NCBI GenBank assembly: GCA_963663995.1
Contig: OY760660.1
Location: forward strand, 30,001-62,000
Origin: Erysipelotrichaceae bacterium
GTDB lineage: Bacteria > Bacillota_I > Bacilli_A > Erysipelotrichales > Erysipelotrichaceae
Reading direction: 5' to 3'
DNA length: 32,000 bases
Below the pieces are notes generated by a model that saw only the letters and a list, made by a program, of their open reading frames with translations, was not told the DNA's origin and made no database searches. The position numbers and the translations under genes are program-made. Of the stretch, positions 12,990 through 26,211 are shown one piece after another; position 1 is the first letter of the stretch; every line of letters starts with the position of its first letter.

Positions 12990-13874
12990 TTATAGGTATA
13001 TTACTGGCTGATGATAGAGAACAGGTAATAATAATGGAATATCATCTGAACGATCTAAGTAACTTTCATATTTATGAGGTGTCATACGATGTAACCCCCA
13101 TTGTGGGCGATCATAATTATAGTAGTTGATATAGTCCATAATCGCTTCAACACATTCAATATAGGTCTTATAATGCTTAAATTTTACTTCATCTTTCATG
13201 TGCCCAAAGAAACTTTCTTGAGCTGCATTATCTAAACAATTTCCACGTCTCGACATTGAACTTTCAATTCCTAGTTCATCTAAGACTTGTTTAAAGGCTC
13301 TTGATGTATAATGTGAACCTTGATCTGAGTGAATGAGAACCTTTAGATTTAAATCACCCATTTGTGTTTCAATAAGCCCTTGAACGGTCTTTAATACAAA
13401 CGAGACATCTAAGGATTCTGATACCCTATAAGATAATATCTTATTACTAGAGGCATCTTTGATGACAGATAAATAAGCTCGCTTATGAGAACCATAAGTA
13501 ATATACGTAATATCTGTGAGAAGTATTTTACGCGCAACCCCTTGTTTGAATTGTCGATTAACTCGATTGACTGATATATCGTTAGTTGCCATATCTCTCA
13601 TCATTTGTCGATATGGATTTGCTTGTCTAATCTCACACACTAAGCCGTATTTACGCATTAATCTTCGTATTTTCTTAAGATTCATACACCTATTATGTTT
13701 ATCTTGAAGATACATCTTAATGGGTCGTGCACCCTTATCATAGCCACGATAGTTGAAGGCTTCTTTGATGTAGGCAAAATCAATCTCATCTTGAATGTCT
13801 TTAAAATTAAGGCTTCGTTTGCGTTTGATAAAGGCGTAATAACCTGATCTGGATACTTGTGCGATTGTACACAT
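12990..13874 (-). CDS. IS3-family transposase OrfB (DDE integrase domain), expressed as an OrfAB fusion by -1 frameshifting
   Basis: DDE triad context: LTDITY, IHSDQGSHYTS, NCLDNAAQESFF. The frame stays open upstream of the listed Met, back to the slippery site at 13982-13988. Confidence 0.9.
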   Translation of the reverse strand: MCTIAQVSRSGYYAFIKRKRSLNFKDIQDEIDFAYIKEAFNYRGYDKGARPIKMYLQDKHNRCMNLKKIRRLMRKYGLVCEIRQANPYRQMMRDMATNDISVNRVNRQFKQGVARKILLTDITYITYGSHKRAYLSVIKDASSNKILSYRVSESLDVSFVLKTVQGLIETQMGDLNLKVLIHSDQGSHYTSRAFKQVLDELGIESSMSRRGNCLDNAAQESFFGHMKDEVKFKHYKTYIECVEAIMDYINYYNYDRPQWGLHRMTPHKYESYLDRSDDIPLLLPVLYHQPVIYL

Positions 13875-13921
13875 ATAATTTATATCTAAACGATTTTTAC
13901 GTTTTGAATTAAGGTTAAAAA

Positions 13922-14356
13922 TTATTTCGTATTTTTCTTGTGCGCTAAGTTGTATCTCACACTCCTTTCCAGTGCGTCGAGCTTTTTTAAGAATTCATTC
14001 TCCTGTTCTAAGTATTCATTTCGATCTTTCAAATACTTAAGTTCTTCTTCTAGTGTTCTTGGCTTTTGTCTTGAACGACCTGAACTTCCTTTTCGCGTGT
14101 CTTTAAACCCTTCATCGCGTTTACTCATCTTTCGCCAACGCTCTAACGACAAACGGATACGATTCATTCCTAAATCTTTAACACTTAATCCTGCATCTTC
14201 GAAAATCTGTCTAGAACTATATCCTCTCTGATACAAATCAACTGATTTCTCTCTAAAAGCCATCGTGTAAGTTATCGACTTTTCACTAATATTTTCTATA
14301 TACGGATTATCTTTCAATCGTTTAATCTGTTCTTCTGAAAATCGGACTTTACTCAT
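13922..14356 (-). CDS. IS3-family transposase OrfA (HTH plus leucine-zipper region)
   Basis: 144 aa with an N-terminal HTH, a basic region, and a C-terminal LEEELKYLKDRNEYLEQENEFLKKL coiled coil. Confidence 0.9.
   Translation of the reverse strand: MSKVRFSEEQIKRLKDNPYIENISEKSITYTMAFREKSVDLYQRGYSSRQIFEDAGLSVKDLGMNRIRLSLERWRKMSKRDEGFKDTRKGSSGRSRQKPRTLEEELKYLKDRNEYLEQENEFLKKLDALERSVRYNLAHKKNTK
13982..13988 (-). other. programmed -1 ribosomal frameshift heptamer A AAA AAG of IS-A
   Basis: The minus strand reads TTA AAA AAG CTC. In my hand translation the -1 frame from here runs without a stop into MCTIAQVSRSGYY. Confidence 0.7.
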
Positions 14357-14490: not shown

Positions 14491-14868
14491 ATGAGAGGAA
14501 GACCAAAAGGTGGGAAGAACAGAAAATACGAATTAGAATTTATGATTGAAGTAATTAATCGTTATTTAGAAGATAGAGTTTCACTACCTCGCTTAGAATC
14601 GGAATTAAACATTAGTCATTCCGTCATCAGAAACTGGATAAGACATTATCGAGAGAATGGAATTGAAGGTCTTAGAACCATTCACAAGGGCAAAGGCAAC
14701 CCTTATTCAGCCCTGTATACAAGTAAAAATTTAACTGAAGTTGAACGTTTAAAACTTGAGCTTATGAAACGAGACATTGAAATTGAACGCTTAAAAAAAG
14801 GATACACCGTGAAAGGAGTTGGTTCACAGAAGGAATACGTTACACTATCCGGCAAGACTATCAAATAG
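14491..14868 (+). CDS. IS3-family transposase OrfA
   Basis: 125 aa with an HTH (LESELNISHSVIRNWIRHYRENG) and a coiled coil. A GGAGG RBS is present. Confidence 0.9.
   Translation: MRGRPKGGKNRKYELEFMIEVINRYLEDRVSLPRLESELNISHSVIRNWIRHYRENGIEGLRTIHKGKGNPYSALYTSKNLTEVERLKLELMKRDIEIERLKKGYTVKGVGSQKEYVTLSGKTIK
14793..14799 (+). other. programmed -1 frameshift heptamer A AAA AAA (followed by G) of IS-B
   Basis: TTA AAA AAA GGA. By hand translation the -1 frame is open from here into MGLNRSGYYKW. Confidence 0.7.
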
Positions 14869-14915
14869 CTGATGGATTAAAAGATAAATATTCAATTACT
14901 CAATTACTTAAAGAA

Positions 14916-15716
14916 ATGGGATTGAATCGATCAGGGTACTACAAATGGTTAGAGCGCAAAGATAGACCTAATCAATACATCCAATATCGAATGAAGTTAA
15001 TACCATATATTACGCAAATACATCAAAAACATAAGACTTATGGTTATCATCGAGTAGCCTATGAATTACGTAATCAAACAGAGTTTGTGTTCTCTGATCA
15101 CTTGGTTCATAAATGTATGAAACAGTTGGGTTTAAAATCAAGTGCGAGAAAGTATAGATATCGAAAAGTTGGTGATGAGCATGTCATTTACAAAAATGAA
15201 GTGGCTGGGCATTGGAATGCCTCAAAACCTTATGAGATTGTCGTATCAGACATGACTCAGATTCGTAATCGAGGGAAAGCATATGAACTCACATTGTTTA
15301 TCGATACGTTCAATAATGAAATTATCGCTCAATCCATGTCATCTCAAAAAGGTGATATTAAACCTTATTATGATTGTTTATCCCAATATTTAAAGCAAAT
15401 AAAAGGAATAGAATACCCCATCATCCTTCACACAGATCAAGGGTCAGTCTACTCCAGTAAAGCTTTCAATCAAGCTCTTTCAAATTATAACATTATTCGT
15501 TCGATGAATCGCTCAGGTACACCTACGGATAATCCAGTCAATGAAGCACTTAATGGATGGATGAAAGATGAATTGTATATAGATTTTAATATCTCTCGTT
15601 CAAATGATGTTTATCAAACAATTAAAGAATATATTCATCATTTTAATCATGAACGTCCTGCATATACCTTACAATATAAAACCCCAATTCAATATAAACA
15701 TGACTTAGGGTTCTAA
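14916..15716 (+). CDS. IS3-family transposase OrfB (DDE domain)
   Basis: VVSDMTQI, LHTDQGSVYSS, PTDNPVNEALNGW. The frame is open upstream to the slippery site. Confidence 0.9.
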   Translation: MGLNRSGYYKWLERKDRPNQYIQYRMKLIPYITQIHQKHKTYGYHRVAYELRNQTEFVFSDHLVHKCMKQLGLKSSARKYRYRKVGDEHVIYKNEVAGHWNASKPYEIVVSDMTQIRNRGKAYELTLFIDTFNNEIIAQSMSSQKGDIKPYYDCLSQYLKQIKGIEYPIILHTDQGSVYSSKAFNQALSNYNIIRSMNRSGTPTDNPVNEALNGWMKDELYIDFNISRSNDVYQTIKEYIHHFNHERPAYTLQYKTPIQYKHDLGF

Positions 15717-21654: not shown

Positions 21655-21828
21655 ATGGAAGCCGTACTACTATTCGCAGGACTTGGAGCTGTATATGCTT
21701 TGGTTTATTATTTAAATCAAAAGACAGCTGTGCCTGAAGGTTGCGAAGTAGCTGATGCCAATTGTGCATCTTGTTCAGTCGGCTCATGCTCAATCAAACC
21801 GTTAATCAATAAGGAGAATCAACTATGA
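21655..21828 (+). CDS. unlisted 57-aa membrane-anchored Cys-rich protein (TM helix plus CX6CX2CX4C)
   Basis: Hand translation gives MEAVLLFAGLGAVYALVYYLNQKTAVPEGCEVADANCASCSVGSCSIKPLINKENQL. The ATG is 1 nt after the rnfA stop, and the stop overlaps the rnfB start as ATGA. There is no clear SD, so expression would depend on translational coupling. Confidence 0.5.
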   Translation: MEAVLLFAGLGAVYALVYYLNQKTAVPEGCEVADANCASCSVGSCSIKPLINKENQL

Positions 21829-22129: not shown

Positions 22130-22154
22130 AGTCCTAGAAATAGGACTTTTTTTT
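22130..22154 (+). terminator. rnf operon terminator
   Basis: AGTCCTA GAAA TAGGACT followed by T8. Confidence 0.7.
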
Positions 22155-22195: not shown

Positions 22196-22561
22196 ATGAA
22201 GGGCGTTATGCAAGCTAGTGCATTCTATGTTGTTTTAATGGGAATATCAGCAGGTTTAATGTTACTGATTTCTTTAGAACACATGCGAATCAATTCAATG
22301 ACTATTCTTAAACAATCACTACAAGAAAGTGCTCATCTTTTAGCTGAAGCAGAAATCAATGATCGTGAAGCTTTAGTTGAATCATATTTATATGAAGCAT
22401 TGAGTCTTAGAAAACCGATTAATGAAAGCTATGAAGTAGAAATCATTAGTTTTATTGCAGATCCTATTGCTCTACGTGTCGCTATTACTGTGACGCCACA
22501 TTATTTAAGTGATGATATGCATTATCGCTTTGAAGAAAGTTTAATCGAGGTAGATTCATGA
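22196..22561 (+). CDS. hypothetical membrane-anchored protein with a pilin/TadE-like N-terminus (first gene of the Tad-like locus)
   Basis: 121 aa beginning MKGVMQASAFYVVLMGISAGLMLLISL and followed by a soluble domain. The N-terminus parallels that of the 25852 gene. Confidence 0.45.
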   Translation: MKGVMQASAFYVVLMGISAGLMLLISLEHMRINSMTILKQSLQESAHLLAEAEINDREALVESYLYEALSLRKPINESYEVEIISFIADPIALRVAITVTPHYLSDDMHYRFEESLIEVDS

Positions 22562-23262
22562 CAAAGAAAAAAAGTTTGATTATTTTAAGTAGTTCATTAG
22601 TCTTTGCGTTCTTATGTTTTGCATTAAGTTACATTTATATACAAACACAATTAGAACTTGTTGATGTGGTTGTTAGTACACATCATTTAAAGGCTCGACA
22701 AATAATCGAGGATGAAGACGTAAAAATTATACAAATGCCATCACATTATGTCTCTTCATTTAATGTCATTGACATTGATGATGTGGTTGGGAAGTATGTT
22801 GTGATTGATGGATTTATACCGTCAAATTCAATGATACATACTTCTACAATTGAAGACTTGGATGAGAGTATTGATCAACCAAGTTTACTTTTAAAAGAAG
22901 ATCAAGCGCTTTTTGCTTTAGATGCTAGTTTATTAACGACGGCTGGAAATAGCTATGTGATTCAACAGAAAGTTGATATTTATGGGGCGATTAAACTACG
23001 TGATAATACGGTTGTTGATCGATTTATCTCATCTGTTCGAATTGTCGGACTTAAAGATAAAAACGGGGATGATGTCGATACACAAAATGATAATTTACCA
23101 AAGGTTATTTTGTTGGCTGTTGATCGTAACATATTACCACTGCTCACTAAACTTGAAGCTATGGGTGATATAAGCCTGAGTGCAAGTAGTTACTTAGTTA
23201 GTGAAGAAGAAAGTTTTGTTCATGAAAGTACAGAACTTTGGATGGTTTTAAATGCTTCATGA
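22558..23262 (+). CDS. CpaB/RcpC-like Flp pilus assembly protein (TM anchor plus SAF-like domain)
   Basis: 234 aa with an N-terminal TM helix, then VDVVVSTHHLKARQIIEDEDVKIIQMPSHYV and DDVVGKYVVIDGFIPSNSMI, resembling the CpaB SAF domain pattern. Confidence 0.6.
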   Translation: MTKKKSLIILSSSLVFAFLCFALSYIYIQTQLELVDVVVSTHHLKARQIIEDEDVKIIQMPSHYVSSFNVIDIDDVVGKYVVIDGFIPSNSMIHTSTIEDLDESIDQPSLLLKEDQALFALDASLLTTAGNSYVIQQKVDIYGAIKLRDNTVVDRFISSVRIVGLKDKNGDDVDTQNDNLPKVILLAVDRNILPLLTKLEAMGDISLSASSYLVSEEESFVHESTELWMVLNAS

Positions 23263-24265
23263 GTTAAATTTTGGTTTACTTCAAAAGTATATTGAAGATC
23301 CAATGATCACTGATATTAACTACAATGGAAAACAATTGTGGATTGACCATCTCTCTAAAGGTCGCTATGCAATTGATGATTTTAAAGCCCACGAGTTTAT
23401 GCAACAACTGGTCTATAAAATTGCGAATCTTGTTAATTTACCTTTCAATAATCAATCACCTGTTATTGAAGCCGAAACGAAAGAATTACGGATTAGTTTA
23501 CTTCATCCCTCTATTGCTAGGGGAGGCATTTCCTTATCAATTAGAAAAACACCTTCGATTTGTCGCTTGCATGACCCCGTTACAGGAATTAAAACATATG
23601 CCCCTAAGTGGGTTATAGAATATTTGCAATCAGCCATTAAAACAGCTAAAAACATTATGGTTTCAGGTTTACCAGGTTCTGGTAAGACAGAACTTGTTAA
23701 ATATTTAATGGAGTTTATTCCGCCAAGTGAAAGAGTTATTACGATTGAAGATACTTTAGAACTAAGGTATGGTGATATTCATCCCCATAAGGATAATGTG
23801 ATGATCAAAATTAAAGAAAACTTTGATTATGAACAAGCAATTAAAAGTTCATTACGGCAAAGACCTAATTGGATATGTATTTCAGAAGTCAGAGGAAAAG
23901 AGATTATTCATTTACTACAAAGTGTTTCAACAGGCACTAAACTCATCTCTACTATTCATGCTGAAAGTGCTTATGCCATACCTTTTCGCATGATGGTGAT
24001 GATGCCAGGATCGGAACTTACTAATCAAAGTTTAAATACATTGATTCACGATACTTTAGATATTGGAATACATATTGATATATGTGTCTCAAAAAATGGA
24101 ATCGTTCGTCGTATTCGTGAAGTCATTAATTATCGAATTGATGAAAACTACAAATGCATTAAGGAGTGTATCTATGATGCCAACAAAGATAATATTGTTT
24201 CTTCAAAAACAAAGACAAAATCTAGGAAATCTGTCAAAAGCACAAATACTACGCATCCTGCTTGA
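23252..24265 (+). CDS. CpaF/TadA-type pilus assembly ATPase (T2SS/T4SS E family)
   Basis: 337 aa with Walker A GLPGSGKTE, ITIEDTLEL, and the Walker B/Asp box RQRPNWICISEVRG, followed by TIHA. Confidence 0.9.
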   Translation: MLHELNFGLLQKYIEDPMITDINYNGKQLWIDHLSKGRYAIDDFKAHEFMQQLVYKIANLVNLPFNNQSPVIEAETKELRISLLHPSIARGGISLSIRKTPSICRLHDPVTGIKTYAPKWVIEYLQSAIKTAKNIMVSGLPGSGKTELVKYLMEFIPPSERVITIEDTLELRYGDIHPHKDNVMIKIKENFDYEQAIKSSLRQRPNWICISEVRGKEIIHLLQSVSTGTKLISTIHAESAYAIPFRMMVMMPGSELTNQSLNTLIHDTLDIGIHIDICVSKNGIVRRIREVINYRIDENYKCIKECIYDANKDNIVSSKTKTKSRKSVKSTNTTHPA

Positions 24266-24962
24266 ATTATTTATCGCTTTACTGTTCTCTGTTTTGTTTG
24301 GATTAGAGATCGAATATTTAATCGCTTTATTTTGTTTAACACTATTTCTAAGTCCAAGTTTTATGCGTTACCAATACTTATATCAAAAAGAAGAAAAAGC
24401 ATTCTTTGAATTAACTGATTTTCTTCAACAATTCGTCGCAGCTTTTAAACAACATCCGAAAATATATTCAAGTTTAATTGAATGTAAAGATGTCAGTCAG
24501 AATCAACTCTTAAAAACAATCAACTCATGGATATCAGCGCTTGAAAAAGGTGGCTATCCAAAAGAGCATGCGCAAAAATTTATTGACTCCTATCCACATT
24601 TTATTGTCGGTAATTTAGTTCATTTAATGTTGGCAGTTGAGGAATTTGGGGCTTCATCCTATGCCGAAGGATTAGAAATCATTCAGGATGATTTAGAAGA
24701 TTGGATAGAAGATACCTATACCTTTAAACAAACACAACTAGCAACAAAAAGGCGAATTGAGTTTTTAGCGTTAATGGCTTTAGGAATTGCTTACTTTAGT
24801 CATTCTATGTTATTTCAAACACGCGCAATAGAAGCATTAGATTTCTATCACATGACAGTTTTTGGGTTTTTAGTATTAATCATATTAACACTATTGATGG
24901 CACATAAAGCTTTATCAACACCATGGATGGACAAACAGGAGCTGATATGGAAAGAATCATAG
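24174..24962 (+). CDS. TadB-like platform protein (T2SS F-domain, half-size)
   Basis: 262 aa with N-terminal TM helices, a cytoplasmic helical domain and two C-terminal TM helices. An AAGGAG RBS lies 7 nt upstream of the ATG at 24174. The 24063 start in the ORF track lies deep inside cpaF. Confidence 0.65.
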   Translation: MMPTKIILFLQKQRQNLGNLSKAQILRILLELFIALLFSVLFGLEIEYLIALFCLTLFLSPSFMRYQYLYQKEEKAFFELTDFLQQFVAAFKQHPKIYSSLIECKDVSQNQLLKTINSWISALEKGGYPKEHAQKFIDSYPHFIVGNLVHLMLAVEEFGASSYAEGLEIIQDDLEDWIEDTYTFKQTQLATKRRIEFLALMALGIAYFSHSMLFQTRAIEALDFYHMTVFGFLVLIILTLLMAHKALSTPWMDKQELIWKES

Positions 24963-25702
24963 CTTGTACACTTGTGATTGCAGTGTGGGTTTATAAAGAT
25001 AAAGAAATCTCAGCACTACTTTTTGGTTTAAGAGAGAAAAAATTAGATTTATATTGTGAAATATTAACTGAGTATAATATTGATAAAATTCATCGAAAAC
25101 GATATAAACAATTATCTCAAGCAAGATTTTTATTGATTCCAATGCTTATCGTGAGTGATGATGTTCTTTTGTTTATATTGAATGTTTTAAGTTTAATCGT
25201 CTTATATAAAATTGAATACTACAAAATTAAATTTAAAGTTAATAAACGAATTAGGCATATCCGTTATCAGTTTCCCATCTATCTAAGACAACTACAGGTA
25301 TTACTACAAAACAATACTGTGACTAAAGCAATTGAAGCATCATTAGATCAAGTTCCAAATTTATTTAAGGAAGATATCGTTTTATTGCATAAAAGATTAT
25401 TAGAGAATCCTATGAATTTGAATGCATACATTGAATGTATGAGTCAGTATGATTTGCCTGAAATACAAAGAGCAATGAAATGGCTATATCGCTATCAAAC
25501 AATTGGAATCTCAGATGTCAATCGACAGTTTAATCGAATGATTACTTCAACCTCTAAATGGTTGAGACAATCACGCATTCAATCGAAAGAACAATCATTA
25601 ACTCTATATCAGTGGTGGGGCATTTTACCTCTCTTTGGAGTCACAATTGTCTTTCTTAGCGCAATGGTTAGTGTTGCGACATCATTTTTTGAAAGGAGGT
25701 AA
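24947..25702 (+). CDS. TadC-like platform protein (T2SS F-domain, half-size)
   Basis: 251 aa. YQFPIYLRQLQVLLQNNTVTKAIEAS resembles the T2SSF core. An AGGAG RBS lies 5 nt upstream of the ATG at 24947, and there are C-terminal TM helices. Confidence 0.65.
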   Translation: MERIIACTLVIAVWVYKDKEISALLFGLREKKLDLYCEILTEYNIDKIHRKRYKQLSQARFLLIPMLIVSDDVLLFILNVLSLIVLYKIEYYKIKFKVNKRIRHIRYQFPIYLRQLQVLLQNNTVTKAIEASLDQVPNLFKEDIVLLHKRLLENPMNLNAYIECMSQYDLPEIQRAMKWLYRYQTIGISDVNRQFNRMITSTSKWLRQSRIQSKEQSLTLYQWWGILPLFGVTIVFLSAMVSVATSFFERR

Positions 25703-25708
25703 CTCAAA

Positions 25709-25852
25709 ATGAAAGCATTTTTTGAAGAGTATGGTTTGGTTATCGTGGTGACTGTTATCGCGACTGGCATGATTTTGTTTTCTGAAGGATTTAAAACAAC
25801 CATGCAATCGACACTTGAAGGACAGTGGGCTAACATGACCACCTTGAGTTAA
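25709..25852 (+). CDS. unlisted 47-aa Flp-family-like pilin
   Basis: Hand translation gives MKAFFEEYGLVIVVTVIATGMILFSEGFKTTMQSTLEGQWANMTTLS. It has an EYGL motif plus a hydrophobic helix as in Flp pilins, and a strong GAAAGGAGGT RBS 8 nt upstream. An in-frame TAA 9 nt upstream fixes the N-terminus. Confidence 0.7.
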   Translation: MKAFFEEYGLVIVVTVIATGMILFSEGFKTTMQSTLEGQWANMTTLS

Positions 25853-26190
25853 TGAAAGGTGCATTTGAGGCAACTTTAGTTTTGTTTTTTGGAATGATGT
25901 TTATTTTGATGGGTATGGATTATGTTGAAGTTCAGCTCATAAACACTCAAGCTCGATCTTTAGCAGAAAATACTTTATCAATCATTGAACATCAAAATAG
26001 ATATGATGCAAGTGTACAAGCGATTATCGACTCAAACTCAATAACGTGTAATAATTGCACCCTACATCTATCACCCCACAATCTTTATCCATCACGATAT
26101 TGGGTGGTTGTTGAATATCCTGTACATTTAGCACATATTAACTTAGAGATGAAATCTGAAATACGCCTTCTTTCACGTCCTTTAGGATAG
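25852..26190 (+). CDS. TadE-like minor pilin / pseudopilin
   Basis: 112 aa beginning MKGAFEATLVLFFGMMFILMGMDYVEV, which resembles the TadE N-terminal domain. The start overlaps the flp stop as TAATG. Confidence 0.55.
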   Translation: MKGAFEATLVLFFGMMFILMGMDYVEVQLINTQARSLAENTLSIIEHQNRYDASVQAIIDSNSITCNNCTLHLSPHNLYPSRYWVVVEYPVHLAHINLEMKSEIRLLSRPLG

Positions 26191-26211
26191 GTAAAAACCT
26201 ATCCTATTTTT
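26184..26211 (+). terminator. terminator of the Tad-like operon
   Basis: AGGATAGG TAAAAA CCTATCCT followed by ATTTTT. Confidence 0.6.

Follow-up and report, generated by a model that had tools for sequence, protein, structure and literature searches.

A seven-gene cassette of Erysipelotrichaceae that probably encodes a minimal Tad-like filament machine with leaderless pilins

A 32,000-nucleotide stretch from an Erysipelotrichaceae bacterium (GenBank assembly GCA_963663995.1, contig OY760660.1, positions 30,001 to 62,000; hereafter, the window) contains a compact cassette of seven genes, P1 to P7, at positions 22196–26190. The present analysis suggests, on balance, that this cassette encodes a minimal, probably peptidase-independent, Tad-like filament machine and that it represents a separate, Firmicutes-specific lineage of the type IV filament (T4F) superfamily. 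Specifically, it combines a secretion ATPase that falls outside the CpaF/TadA clade, a platform split into two paralogous proteins, a CpaB/RcpC-like membrane protein, and a 47-aa protein, P6, whose fixed N terminus looks like that of an already mature Flp pilin. An earlier note on this DNA, made from its letters, had described a Tad/Flp-type pilus locus; its account of the content, order, and probable working of the genes holds, but membership of the Tad family does not, several defining Tad features having been looked for and found missing. The cassette comprises seven co-directional open reading frames (ORFs) on the + strand, with adjacent genes overlapping or at most 7 nt apart, and is delimited as follows (TM, transmembrane; RBS, ribosome-binding site):

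22130..22154 (+): rnf-operon terminator, a 7-pair hairpin followed by a T-run; 5′ boundary of the cassette
22196..22561 (+): P1, 121 aa; N-terminal TM helix and small C-terminal domain
22558..23262 (+): P2, 234 aa; CpaB/RcpC-like, with an N-terminal TM anchor and SAF-like and RcpC-like domains
23252..24265 (+): P3, 337 aa; secretion ATPase of the TadA/VirB11/FlaI supergroup
24174..24962 (+): P4, 262 aa; TadB-like half-size platform protein
24947..25702 (+): P5, 251 aa; TadC-like second platform protein
25694..25699 (+): RBS of P6 (AGGAGG, read from the sequence), 9 nt 5′ of the P6 ATG
25709..25852 (+): P6, 47 aa; Flp-like major pilin candidate
25852..26190 (+): P7, 112 aa; pilin-like protein
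26183..26211 (+): cassette-closing intrinsic terminator, a 10-pair hairpin followed by a T-run

The packing of seven co-directional genes between two terminators had been proposed before, and all ORFs were recovered as proposed, together with hairpins that resemble terminators and run into T-runs at 22130–22147 and 26183–26206. The closest relative found by tblastn in species-representative genomes is a complete metagenome-assembled genome (MAG) chromosome of Erysipelotrichaceae (OY781039.1, locus L001), in which the ATPase is 90% identical. Measured against this relative, the ratio of nonsynonymous to synonymous substitution rates (dN/dS) is 0.05–0.13 for all seven ORFs, with P1 at 0.08. Thus all seven, the 47-codon P6 included, are real protein-coding genes, which by this measure are under purifying selection; the same ratios rule out a reading of the cassette as pseudogenes or chance ORFs. 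P6 is the best conserved of the seven proteins (79–96% identity).

The same seven genes, in the same order and of the same sizes, recur in eight further loci: two Erysipelotrichaceae MAGs, Dielma fastidiosa, three metagenomic Erysipelotrichaceae contigs, Erysipelothrix inopinata (CP060715.1), and L004, a distant spore-former relative in which P4 is only 32% identical. Nearly all eight have the cassette between ApbE/rnf and coaX (Pan_kinase), and in L004 it lies 3′ of a GSIII…DUF212-S1-PGI block that is also present upstream in the window. Composition had been taken to hint at a horizontal origin, the locus appearing more AT-rich than its flanks. Mean gene GC is indeed weakly lower in the cassette than in other genes (0.338 vs. 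0.352, p=0.14), a difference that comes from codon positions 1 and 2; GC at third positions, however, is not lower (0.263 vs. 0.231), and the codon-usage distance of the cassette is only marginally above that of other window blocks. Because neither third-position GC nor codon usage is distinctive, and because synteny is conserved across the family, the suggestion of horizontal transfer is rejected, and the cassette is, as judged from these comparisons, old and vertically inherited within the Erysipelotrichaceae. The wall-less or minimal-envelope host that had been envisaged likewise finds no support: the window comes from an Erysipelotrichaceae MAG, the nearest genomes belong to that family, the cassette is found in Dielma and in Erysipelothrix, a Gram-positive rod (PMC9637936), and L004 encodes the sporulation protein YunB.

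The feature that most distinguishes the cassette is the N terminus of P6. The protein reads MKAFFEEYGLVIVVTVIATG…, starting MKAFFEEYGLV and with a single TM helix at about residues 10–28. The stop codon of P5 (TAA, 25700–25702) is in the P6 frame, two codons 5′ of the P6 ATG, and the RBS of P6 lies inside the end of P5; with an in-frame stop two codons upstream and an AGGAGG RBS in place, a longer P6 precursor is impossible. All eight loci agree in the first 11 residues, although the identity of the platform proteins drops to only ~30–35% in some of them. Among the 187 P6 clusters found, ~100 of the 120 inspected begin MKAFFEEYG/F, and most of the “longer” gene calls read …KGGE[ED][LV]KAFFEEYG, that is, a translated Shine–Dalgarno sequence and then an initiating TTG or GTG rendered as Leu or Val. 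A genuine annotated Flp (L017; PF04964, E=1.5e-15) consists of MTAFKFIKKFARDEDG followed by ATAIEYGLFAALIA…, with a mature length of 46 aa. From Ala3 onward, P6 reads AFFEEYGLVIVV… (45 aa) and is collinear with mature Flp (ATAIEYGL...), so that it looks like a mature Flp in which Met-Lys alone replaces the leader. The equivalents in distant systems start MKTFLEEYG, MEKIFEQYG, MEDIIDEYG, MKQLFDTYG, MNVLMKEYG, and MPTIVKEY: Tyr8, and Gly9 except in the last of these, stand at a fixed distance from Met1, while residues 2 and 3 vary and are often acidic. P7-like proteins in distant systems start MEE… or MKT…. With residues 2 and 3 varying in this way, the wider family as a whole shares no [KR][GAS] cleavage site. 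Of the traits of a pilin with a class III signal peptide, P6 shows the hydrophobic helix, with an acidic residue close to where the helix begins, but not the leader. Taken together, these properties point to P6 being a leaderless, possibly peptidase-independent pilin; our literature search returned nothing on leaderless Flp pilins.

The linked genes fit such a reading. As anticipated, no prepilin peptidase, TadZ, or secretin is linked to the cassette. Pfam scans of 20 other window ORFs detected neither Peptidase_A24 nor ParA/TadZ-like (TadZ/CpaE) proteins (the rnf and opp genes of the window stood outside these scans and were named from precomputed Pfam hits of their orthologues), and TadZ/CpaE is likewise absent from the related chromosomal loci. 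Moreover, inspection of 13 distinct loci, which included 9 chromosomal loci, 3 metagenomic mobile-element-like loci, and pLS20-, Paraclostridium-, and pXO2-type plasmid regions, revealed no A24 peptidase gene within 8–10 kb of the cassette.

P3 is, as had been remarked, the only readily recognisable member: it alone of the seven proteins exceeds a Pfam or NCBIfam threshold, matching Pfam T2SSE (PF00437) with E=5.6e-28. The clear ATPase motifs described previously are all present, with Walker A (GLPGSGKT) at residue 139, the Asp box (IEDTLE) at 165, Walker B (ICISEVR) at 208, and the His box (TIHA) at 234; the protein has neither an N-terminal extension nor a tetracysteine motif. Assignment to a known family is less straightforward. 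The NCBIfam VirB11, TrbB, TadA-family, and FlaI models score 96–125 bits, all below their cut-offs (116–125 bits for TadA-family, TrbB, and VirB11), and against PDB sequences FlaI, archaeal GspE2, CpaF, and VirB11 tie at E ~1e-18 to 1e-20. In tblastn searches of annotated plasmids, a Paraclostridium plasmid scores 164 bits, the pLS20 family 140, and Bacillus thuringiensis plasmids and pXO2 130; overall, P3 scores 127–164 bits against Firmicutes plasmid ATPases vs. 72–102 bits against TrbB, VirB11, and CpaF. A neighbor-joining tree of 23 sequences, a small sample analysed by a simple method, contains a split with 100% bootstrap support that places the Erysipelotrichaceae cassette, a group with fused platform proteins (see below), and the pLS20/pXO2 group on one side, and CpaF, actinobacterial TadA, VirB11/TrbB, and archaeal FlaI/GspE2 on the other. 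Thus the proposal of a CpaF/TadA ATPase stands as far as a T2SSE ATPase with intact motifs is concerned, but in this tree P3 lies outside the CpaF/TadA clade, its neighbours being the “VirB11-like” ATPases found on pLS20/pXO2-type plasmids and on other mobile elements. Scores against NCBIfam ComGA (67 bits), PilT (50), GspE (44), and PilB (39), together with the division of the platform in two, lead us to reject a reading as a Com, type IVa pilus, or type II secretion system (T2SS). Relatives of P3 (30–40% identity) are also present in a phage collection, in the human-gut virome contigs MT837507.1 and MT835474.1 and in two 21-kb Listeria “phage” records, LM 4-14-1 and LM 4-11-1; none of the four records carries annotation.

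P3 ends in a Lys/Ser/Thr-rich C-terminal tail that is overlapped by P4 for 92 nt (24174–24265). The P4 ORF opens at a TTG at 24063, and the ATG at 24174 has an AAGGAG RBS. The ATPases of relatives are shorter at this end, and P4 is called there with a start beyond the ATPase gene or overlapping it by a few nucleotides, so P3 can probably do without the tail, and where exactly P4 starts is uncertain. For P5, there is an upstream ATG at 24923, and the ATG at 24947 has a GGAG RBS and agrees with the orthologues.

The AlphaFold2 (AF2) model of P4 (predicted local distance difference test, pLDDT, 87.5) shows TM helices flanking a cytoplasmic helical bundle of the GspF/PilC fold, and Foldseek matches this model in the PDB to EpsF (2vmb; probability 0.97, TM-score for the target 0.64), PilC (2whn; probability 0.92), and OutF (5nbg). 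The sequence is far less telling. A search of 5.8 billion sequences yielded only 44 P4 homologues, all of which lack a Pfam domain; PF00482 gives weak matches to 7 of 32 P4 family members and 10 of 101 relatives; P4 itself has no match at the curated Pfam and NCBIfam thresholds; and profile searches with the P4, P5, and P6 alignments against PDB sequences returned nothing relevant. Direct hhalign comparison of P5 with P4 is not significant. However, a P5 hidden Markov model (HMM) iterated over 154 relatives matches the P4 orthologues with E=2e-7 over ~200 columns, and many fused proteins of ~500 aa match P5 in their C-terminal half and resemble P4 in their N-terminal half. This makes P4 and P5 a TadB/TadC-like pair of paralogues, and the platform is, on these profile comparisons, split into two adjacent half-size paralogues. 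The suggestion of two half-size T2SSF-like platform proteins is thus upheld by the fold of P4 and the homology of P5 to it, but not by any Pfam T2SSF match at threshold. Within the 3′ end of P5, immediately 5′ of the P6 RBS, lies a terminator-like hairpin with a T-run (25660–25690, +), which could be due to chance or could affect the stability or stoichiometry of the pilin mRNA.

The kinship of the cassette extends beyond the ATPase to modules of Gram-positive plasmids. In pLS20-type plasmids, a gene for a 126-aa protein with an N-terminal TM helix comes before gene 37 (“putative VirB11”), and after it come genes for proteins of 268, 243, and 120 aa and for two copies of a 47-aa protein, the whole being situated between a thioester adhesin and VirD4. 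The Paraclostridium plasmid and pXO2 share this layout (N-terminal TM protein, ATPase, ~270, ~245, 120, and 47 aa). Iterated HMMs match pLS20 gene 38 at 5.8e-21 and gene 39 at 4.8e-16 and 4.8e-18, each gene over its full length; these two genes are, by profile similarity, homologues of P4/P5. For the small proteins, sequence homology to pLS20 genes 36, 40, and 41 is not significant, and the correspondence is one of size, topology, and position: hhalign comparisons of P1 and P7 with pLS20 genes 36 and 40, and of P1 with P7, gave E=0.008–0.13. The pLS20 genes 36 and 38–41 are listed as “Unknown” and the operons are said to encode no pilus components (Val-Calvo et al. 2021, PMC8557374); we found no Tad or type IV pilus interpretation of these genes in the literature. 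A third group consists of metagenomic contigs that encode a fused P4-P5 platform and their own leaderless pilin-like genes, in one case with a P7-like protein fused to leucine-rich repeats (LRRs). Their neighbours encode YqaJ, SSB, a RecD2-like helicase, an integrase, and toxins, and the contigs therefore look like mobile elements.

The plasmid modules resemble the cassette in having its closest named ATPase relatives, P4/P5 homologues, and single-TM proteins of ~120 and 47 aa, and the small proteins of the pLS20 family also start directly at a conserved N terminus (MLDQNxDR...). Unlike the cassette, they have no CpaB-like gene, their 120-aa gene precedes the 47-aa gene, which is duplicated, the 47-aa proteins have no EYG motif, and the modules are embedded between the thioester adhesin gene and VirD4/VirB4/VirB6 genes. 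In pXO2, a TrbC/VirB2-family protein is annotated just 3′ of the VirB11-like module (L016, 9541–9819), so T4F-like small proteins and one resembling a type IV secretion system (T4SS) pilin may coexist in this operon.

This kinship raises the alternative that the cassette is a domesticated mobile-element module of the pLS20/pXO2 “VirB11” type, which would serve cell–cell contact or DNA transfer or uptake across a thick wall rather than adhesion. The higher P3 scores against plasmid ATPases and their grouping with full bootstrap support, the homology of pLS20 genes 38 and 39 to P4/P5, the shared run of gene sizes, and the mobile-element neighbourhood of the fused-platform relatives would all accord with such an origin. 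Nevertheless, we regard it as improbable. No T4SS genes (VirB4, VirD4, VirB6) and no relaxase are encoded in the 32-kb window, where the cassette is flanked by rnf and by coaX/tRNA-His; the fixed housekeeping position across the whole family means that any domestication would be ancient; and the presence of a CpaB-like gene in the chromosomal version and the lack of statistical support for homology of the small proteins both count against it.

The remaining members of the cassette are P2, P1, and P7. P2 matches the TIGR03177 model (pilus_cpaB) with E=5.4e-9 over its full length (residues 8–211), and P2 orthologues carry precomputed PF16976 (RcpC) matches, some of them weak. The view of P2 as a CpaB-like protein with a TM helix and a SAF domain is thereby supported in its main part, but the score is below the curated cut-off (35.7 vs. 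71 bits) and the SAF match is marginal (E=0.017). P1, in contrast, cannot be called TadE-like as had been proposed: it has no match in Pfam, TadE (PF07811) included, or in NCBIfam, and its relatives are detected only within the cassette family. It is the most variable of the seven, with a TM helix at about residues 9–27 and, in its orthologues in the eight loci, an MK[GS] N terminus. The hhalign comparisons with P7 (E=0.008) and with pLS20 gene 36 (E=0.04), whose position P1 occupies, are the nearest approaches to a match and are not significant; P1 may act in assembly or as a minor pilin. The 32 homologues of P7 are all ~112 aa long, and in their alignment an MKG.FE N terminus, an EHQNR motif, and a CxxC pair are invariant (MKGAFE and residues 66 and 69 in P7 itself). 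The CxxC pair and EHQNR motif hint at an extracytoplasmic domain that binds metal or contains a disulfide. Its AF2 model (pLDDT 85.9) is pilin-like in shape, with a 47-residue N-terminal helix (residues 2–48) and a three-stranded sheet (strands within 70–107). P7 homologues are also found in mobile-element loci, and in one of these (L012, 10376–11239) a P7-like protein bears a C-terminal LRR_5 domain. Likewise, a 1016-aa beta-helix protein is encoded 3′ of the cassette in L004 (12198–15248). Both are candidate tip adhesins or cargo.

These proteins bear on a second alternative, that the machine is a membrane complex without an external pilus, which might, for example, export proteins by means of a short pseudopilus or piston, in the manner of T2SS or Com. 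P6 is very small, no obvious adhesin is encoded in the window, and related T4F machines (T2SS, Com) do use short pseudopili (PMC6668835). Yet genuine Flp pilins, equally small, form long pili (PMC10710030), the LRR-fused P7-like protein and the beta-helix neighbour suggest surface exposure, and the similarity of P3 to ComGA/GspE is far weaker than that to TadA/VirB11/FlaI. A machine of this kind therefore seems to us quite unlikely.

If the cassette does encode an external filament, its components could work as follows. A P3 hexamer would dock on a platform formed in the membrane by a P4/P5 heterodimer, and this motor would pull the 47-aa P6 out of the bilayer and polymerise it to give a thin pilus, for which P7, and perhaps P1, would serve as minor or priming pilins. 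The membrane-anchored, CpaB/RcpC-like P2 would form an envelope-spanning collar. P6 and P7 would be translated in an already “mature” form, with only Met-Lys preceding the position that matches +1 of a processed Flp. Because P6 and P7 would be made mature, a prepilin peptidase would probably not be needed, which would also explain why none is ever linked to the cassette.

Several observations weigh against this interpretation. No filament has been seen, and the filament itself is a prediction from the genes. None of the Pfam models T2SSF, Flp_Fap, and TadE matches P1, P5, P6, or P7 significantly. P6 has no Flp_Fap (PF04964) match at E<=1, the best relative in the wider family reaching E=0.012, and hhalign of the P6 profile with genuine Flp aligns EYGL alone; the idea of a 47-aa Flp-like pilin thus keeps the EYGL motif, the length of a mature Flp, and the “Flp pilus assembly pilin Flp” names that some P6 orthologues bear in IMG, but it loses the family match as well as the G(-1) site and the leader. 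Similarly, the TadE-like nature ascribed to P7 retains the pilin-like helix-plus-sheet model but finds no Pfam or NCBIfam match, and Foldseek of that model against the PDB returned nothing significant and no pilin. Furthermore, the small proteins of Erysipelotrichaceae start MKA, MKG, and MK[GS], which fit the class III [KR][GAS] cleavage consensus, so that cleavage of a three-residue leader by a peptidase encoded elsewhere (e.g., ComC) is a possibility. To the same side belong reports that comG systems, and hence ComC, are common and widespread in the Erysipelotrichales (PMC12786226), and the fact that the proteomic link to Erysipelothrix rhusiopathiae (discussed below) draws on the spacing of gi numbers and on synteny at the level of the genus rather than on sequence.

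The principal alternative is that the cassette encodes a monoderm Tad pilus of the conventional kind, though highly diverged, in which P6, P7, and P1 are prepilins with a three-residue class III leader, processed by an unlinked TadV- or ComC-like peptidase. In this case, the Lys at -2 and the small residue at -1 that P1, P6, and P7 each conserve within the Erysipelotrichaceae would reflect cleavage, and the gene order would simply be that of actinobacterial Tad loci, SAF-(TadZ)-TadA-TadB-TadC-Flp-TadE. An unlinked peptidase is not without precedent: in Bifidobacterium, tadV is unlinked. Loci that borrow a peptidase are also known, for example the mannose-sensitive hemagglutinin (MSH) systems (PMC6668835). 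Still, we consider this alternative rather unlikely. Distant members have T, K, D, Q, or V at residue 3 and often an acidic residue 2, while Y8-G9 is fixed; alignment of EYGL with genuine Flp places +1 at A3, which leaves a noncleavable Lys at -1; and the ATPase lies outside the CpaF/TadA clade. The search of the literature for leaderless pilins came up empty, and to our knowledge no prepilin leader of three residues has been described.

Comparison with characterized systems helps to place the leaderless Tad-like machine that we favor. Monoderm Tad/Flp (type IVc) loci, here those of Bifidobacterium breve, Cutibacterium acnes, and an Arthrobacter plasmid (the last two represented by L018 and L022), share with the cassette the order of a SAF/CpaB-like gene, an ATPase gene, two half-size platform genes, a gene for a pilin of ~50–65 aa, and genes for pilin-like proteins. 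They also share the single ATPase, the lack of a secretin, E-Y-G-L at the start of the hydrophobic helix, and the length of the mature Flp. Unlike them, the cassette has no leader or G(-1) site on its pilin-like proteins and no TadZ/CpaE or TadV nearby; its ATPase is 337 aa long rather than 450–520 aa and outside the CpaF/TadA clade; and none of its platform and pilin proteins reaches the cut-off of a curated Tad, T2SSF, Flp, or TadE model. Archaeal type IV pili and the archaellum offer other likenesses: FlaI and Archaeoglobus GspE2 are, by a slight margin, the top PDB sequence matches of P3, the fused two-domain platform FlaJ resembles that of the mobile-element relatives of the cassette, and archaeal systems include pilins with short or atypical N termini. 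However, FlaI and GspE2 lie across the fully supported split in the ATPase tree, the window's host is a bacterium, and no FlaF/G/H/X or other archaellum genes accompany the cassette. Archaeal pilins, moreover, still depend on cleavage by PibD/FlaK/EppA.

Within the Erysipelotrichales, a classical tad operon of 13 genes, with tadV first, has been described from Bulleidia extructa; it is reported to be horizontally acquired, most of its products being assignable by HMM or AlphaFold 3 comparison (PMC12786226). It resembles the cassette as a monoderm T4F adhesion locus in the same bacterial order; unlike that operon, the cassette is vertically inherited, has seven genes, lacks a peptidase, and is barely recognisable by HMMs. 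In E. rhusiopathiae, a proteomic study using isobaric tags (iTRAQ) detected a “Flp/Fap pilin component” (ERH_0825) and a “Flp pilus assembly protein CpaB,” whose gi numbers differ by four; the two proteins were reduced in an avirulent derivative (PMC4968806). Since the genus carries this cassette, these proteins are most probably the orthologues of P6 and P2. A role of the cassette in adhesion or host interaction is likely. Given the Flp names in IMG and the Flp/CpaB annotations in E. rhusiopathiae, a Flp/CpaB-like locus in the Erysipelotrichaceae is not new as such. What appears to be new, being absent from the literature that we found, is threefold: the leaderless pilins, the separate ATPase lineage, and the homology to unannotated genes beside the “VirB11” of Gram-positive conjugative plasmids.

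These findings allow a broader, more tentative proposal: that Erysipelotrichaceae chromosomes, pLS20/pXO2-type plasmids, and other Firmicutes mobile elements could share an unrecognised T4F lineage in which the pilins are leaderless and assembly is free of prepilin peptidase. Processing by prepilin peptidase is treated as universal in type IV filament assembly, and all known type IV pilins carry a cleavable leader. If the proposal is true, a motor and platform can polymerise unprocessed subunits, and the minimal set of genes for a pilus is smaller. Gram-positive conjugation systems, usually said to be pilus-less, would then encode a hidden Tad-like pilus beside “VirB11.” Pilin finders based on class III signal peptides and curated HMMs miss such systems, which are consequently invisible in surveys despite the 187 P6 clusters. 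Two organisms make these ideas accessible to experiment. pLS20 is a plasmid of the tractable Bacillus subtilis, and the homology of its genes 37–39 makes the question of how Gram-positive donors establish contact and cross the wall without a pilus experimentally addressable. E. rhusiopathiae is a cultivable pathogen, and with its proteins annotated as Flp pilin and CpaB lower in the avirulent derivative, a role in virulence can be tested.

Elsewhere in the window, two divergent IS3-family transposase gene pairs, each encoding a helix-turn-helix protein and an rve integrase core, lie between PGI and ApbE, at 12990–14356 (-) and 14491–15716 (+); the corresponding GSIII…S1-PGI block of the distant relative L004 does not contain them. 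The product of a 57-aa ORF at 21655–21828 (+), between the gene for the last Rnf membrane subunit and rnfB, has a TM helix at its N terminus and a tail rich in Cys (CEVADANCASCSVGSCS); the ORF is conserved in both L001 and L002, and in L007 it is called as a gene without a Pfam match. Finally, the 411-aa product of an ORF directly 5′ of ftsZ (1160–2395, +), which the earlier note took to be ftsA, has no Pfam match at E<=0.001.

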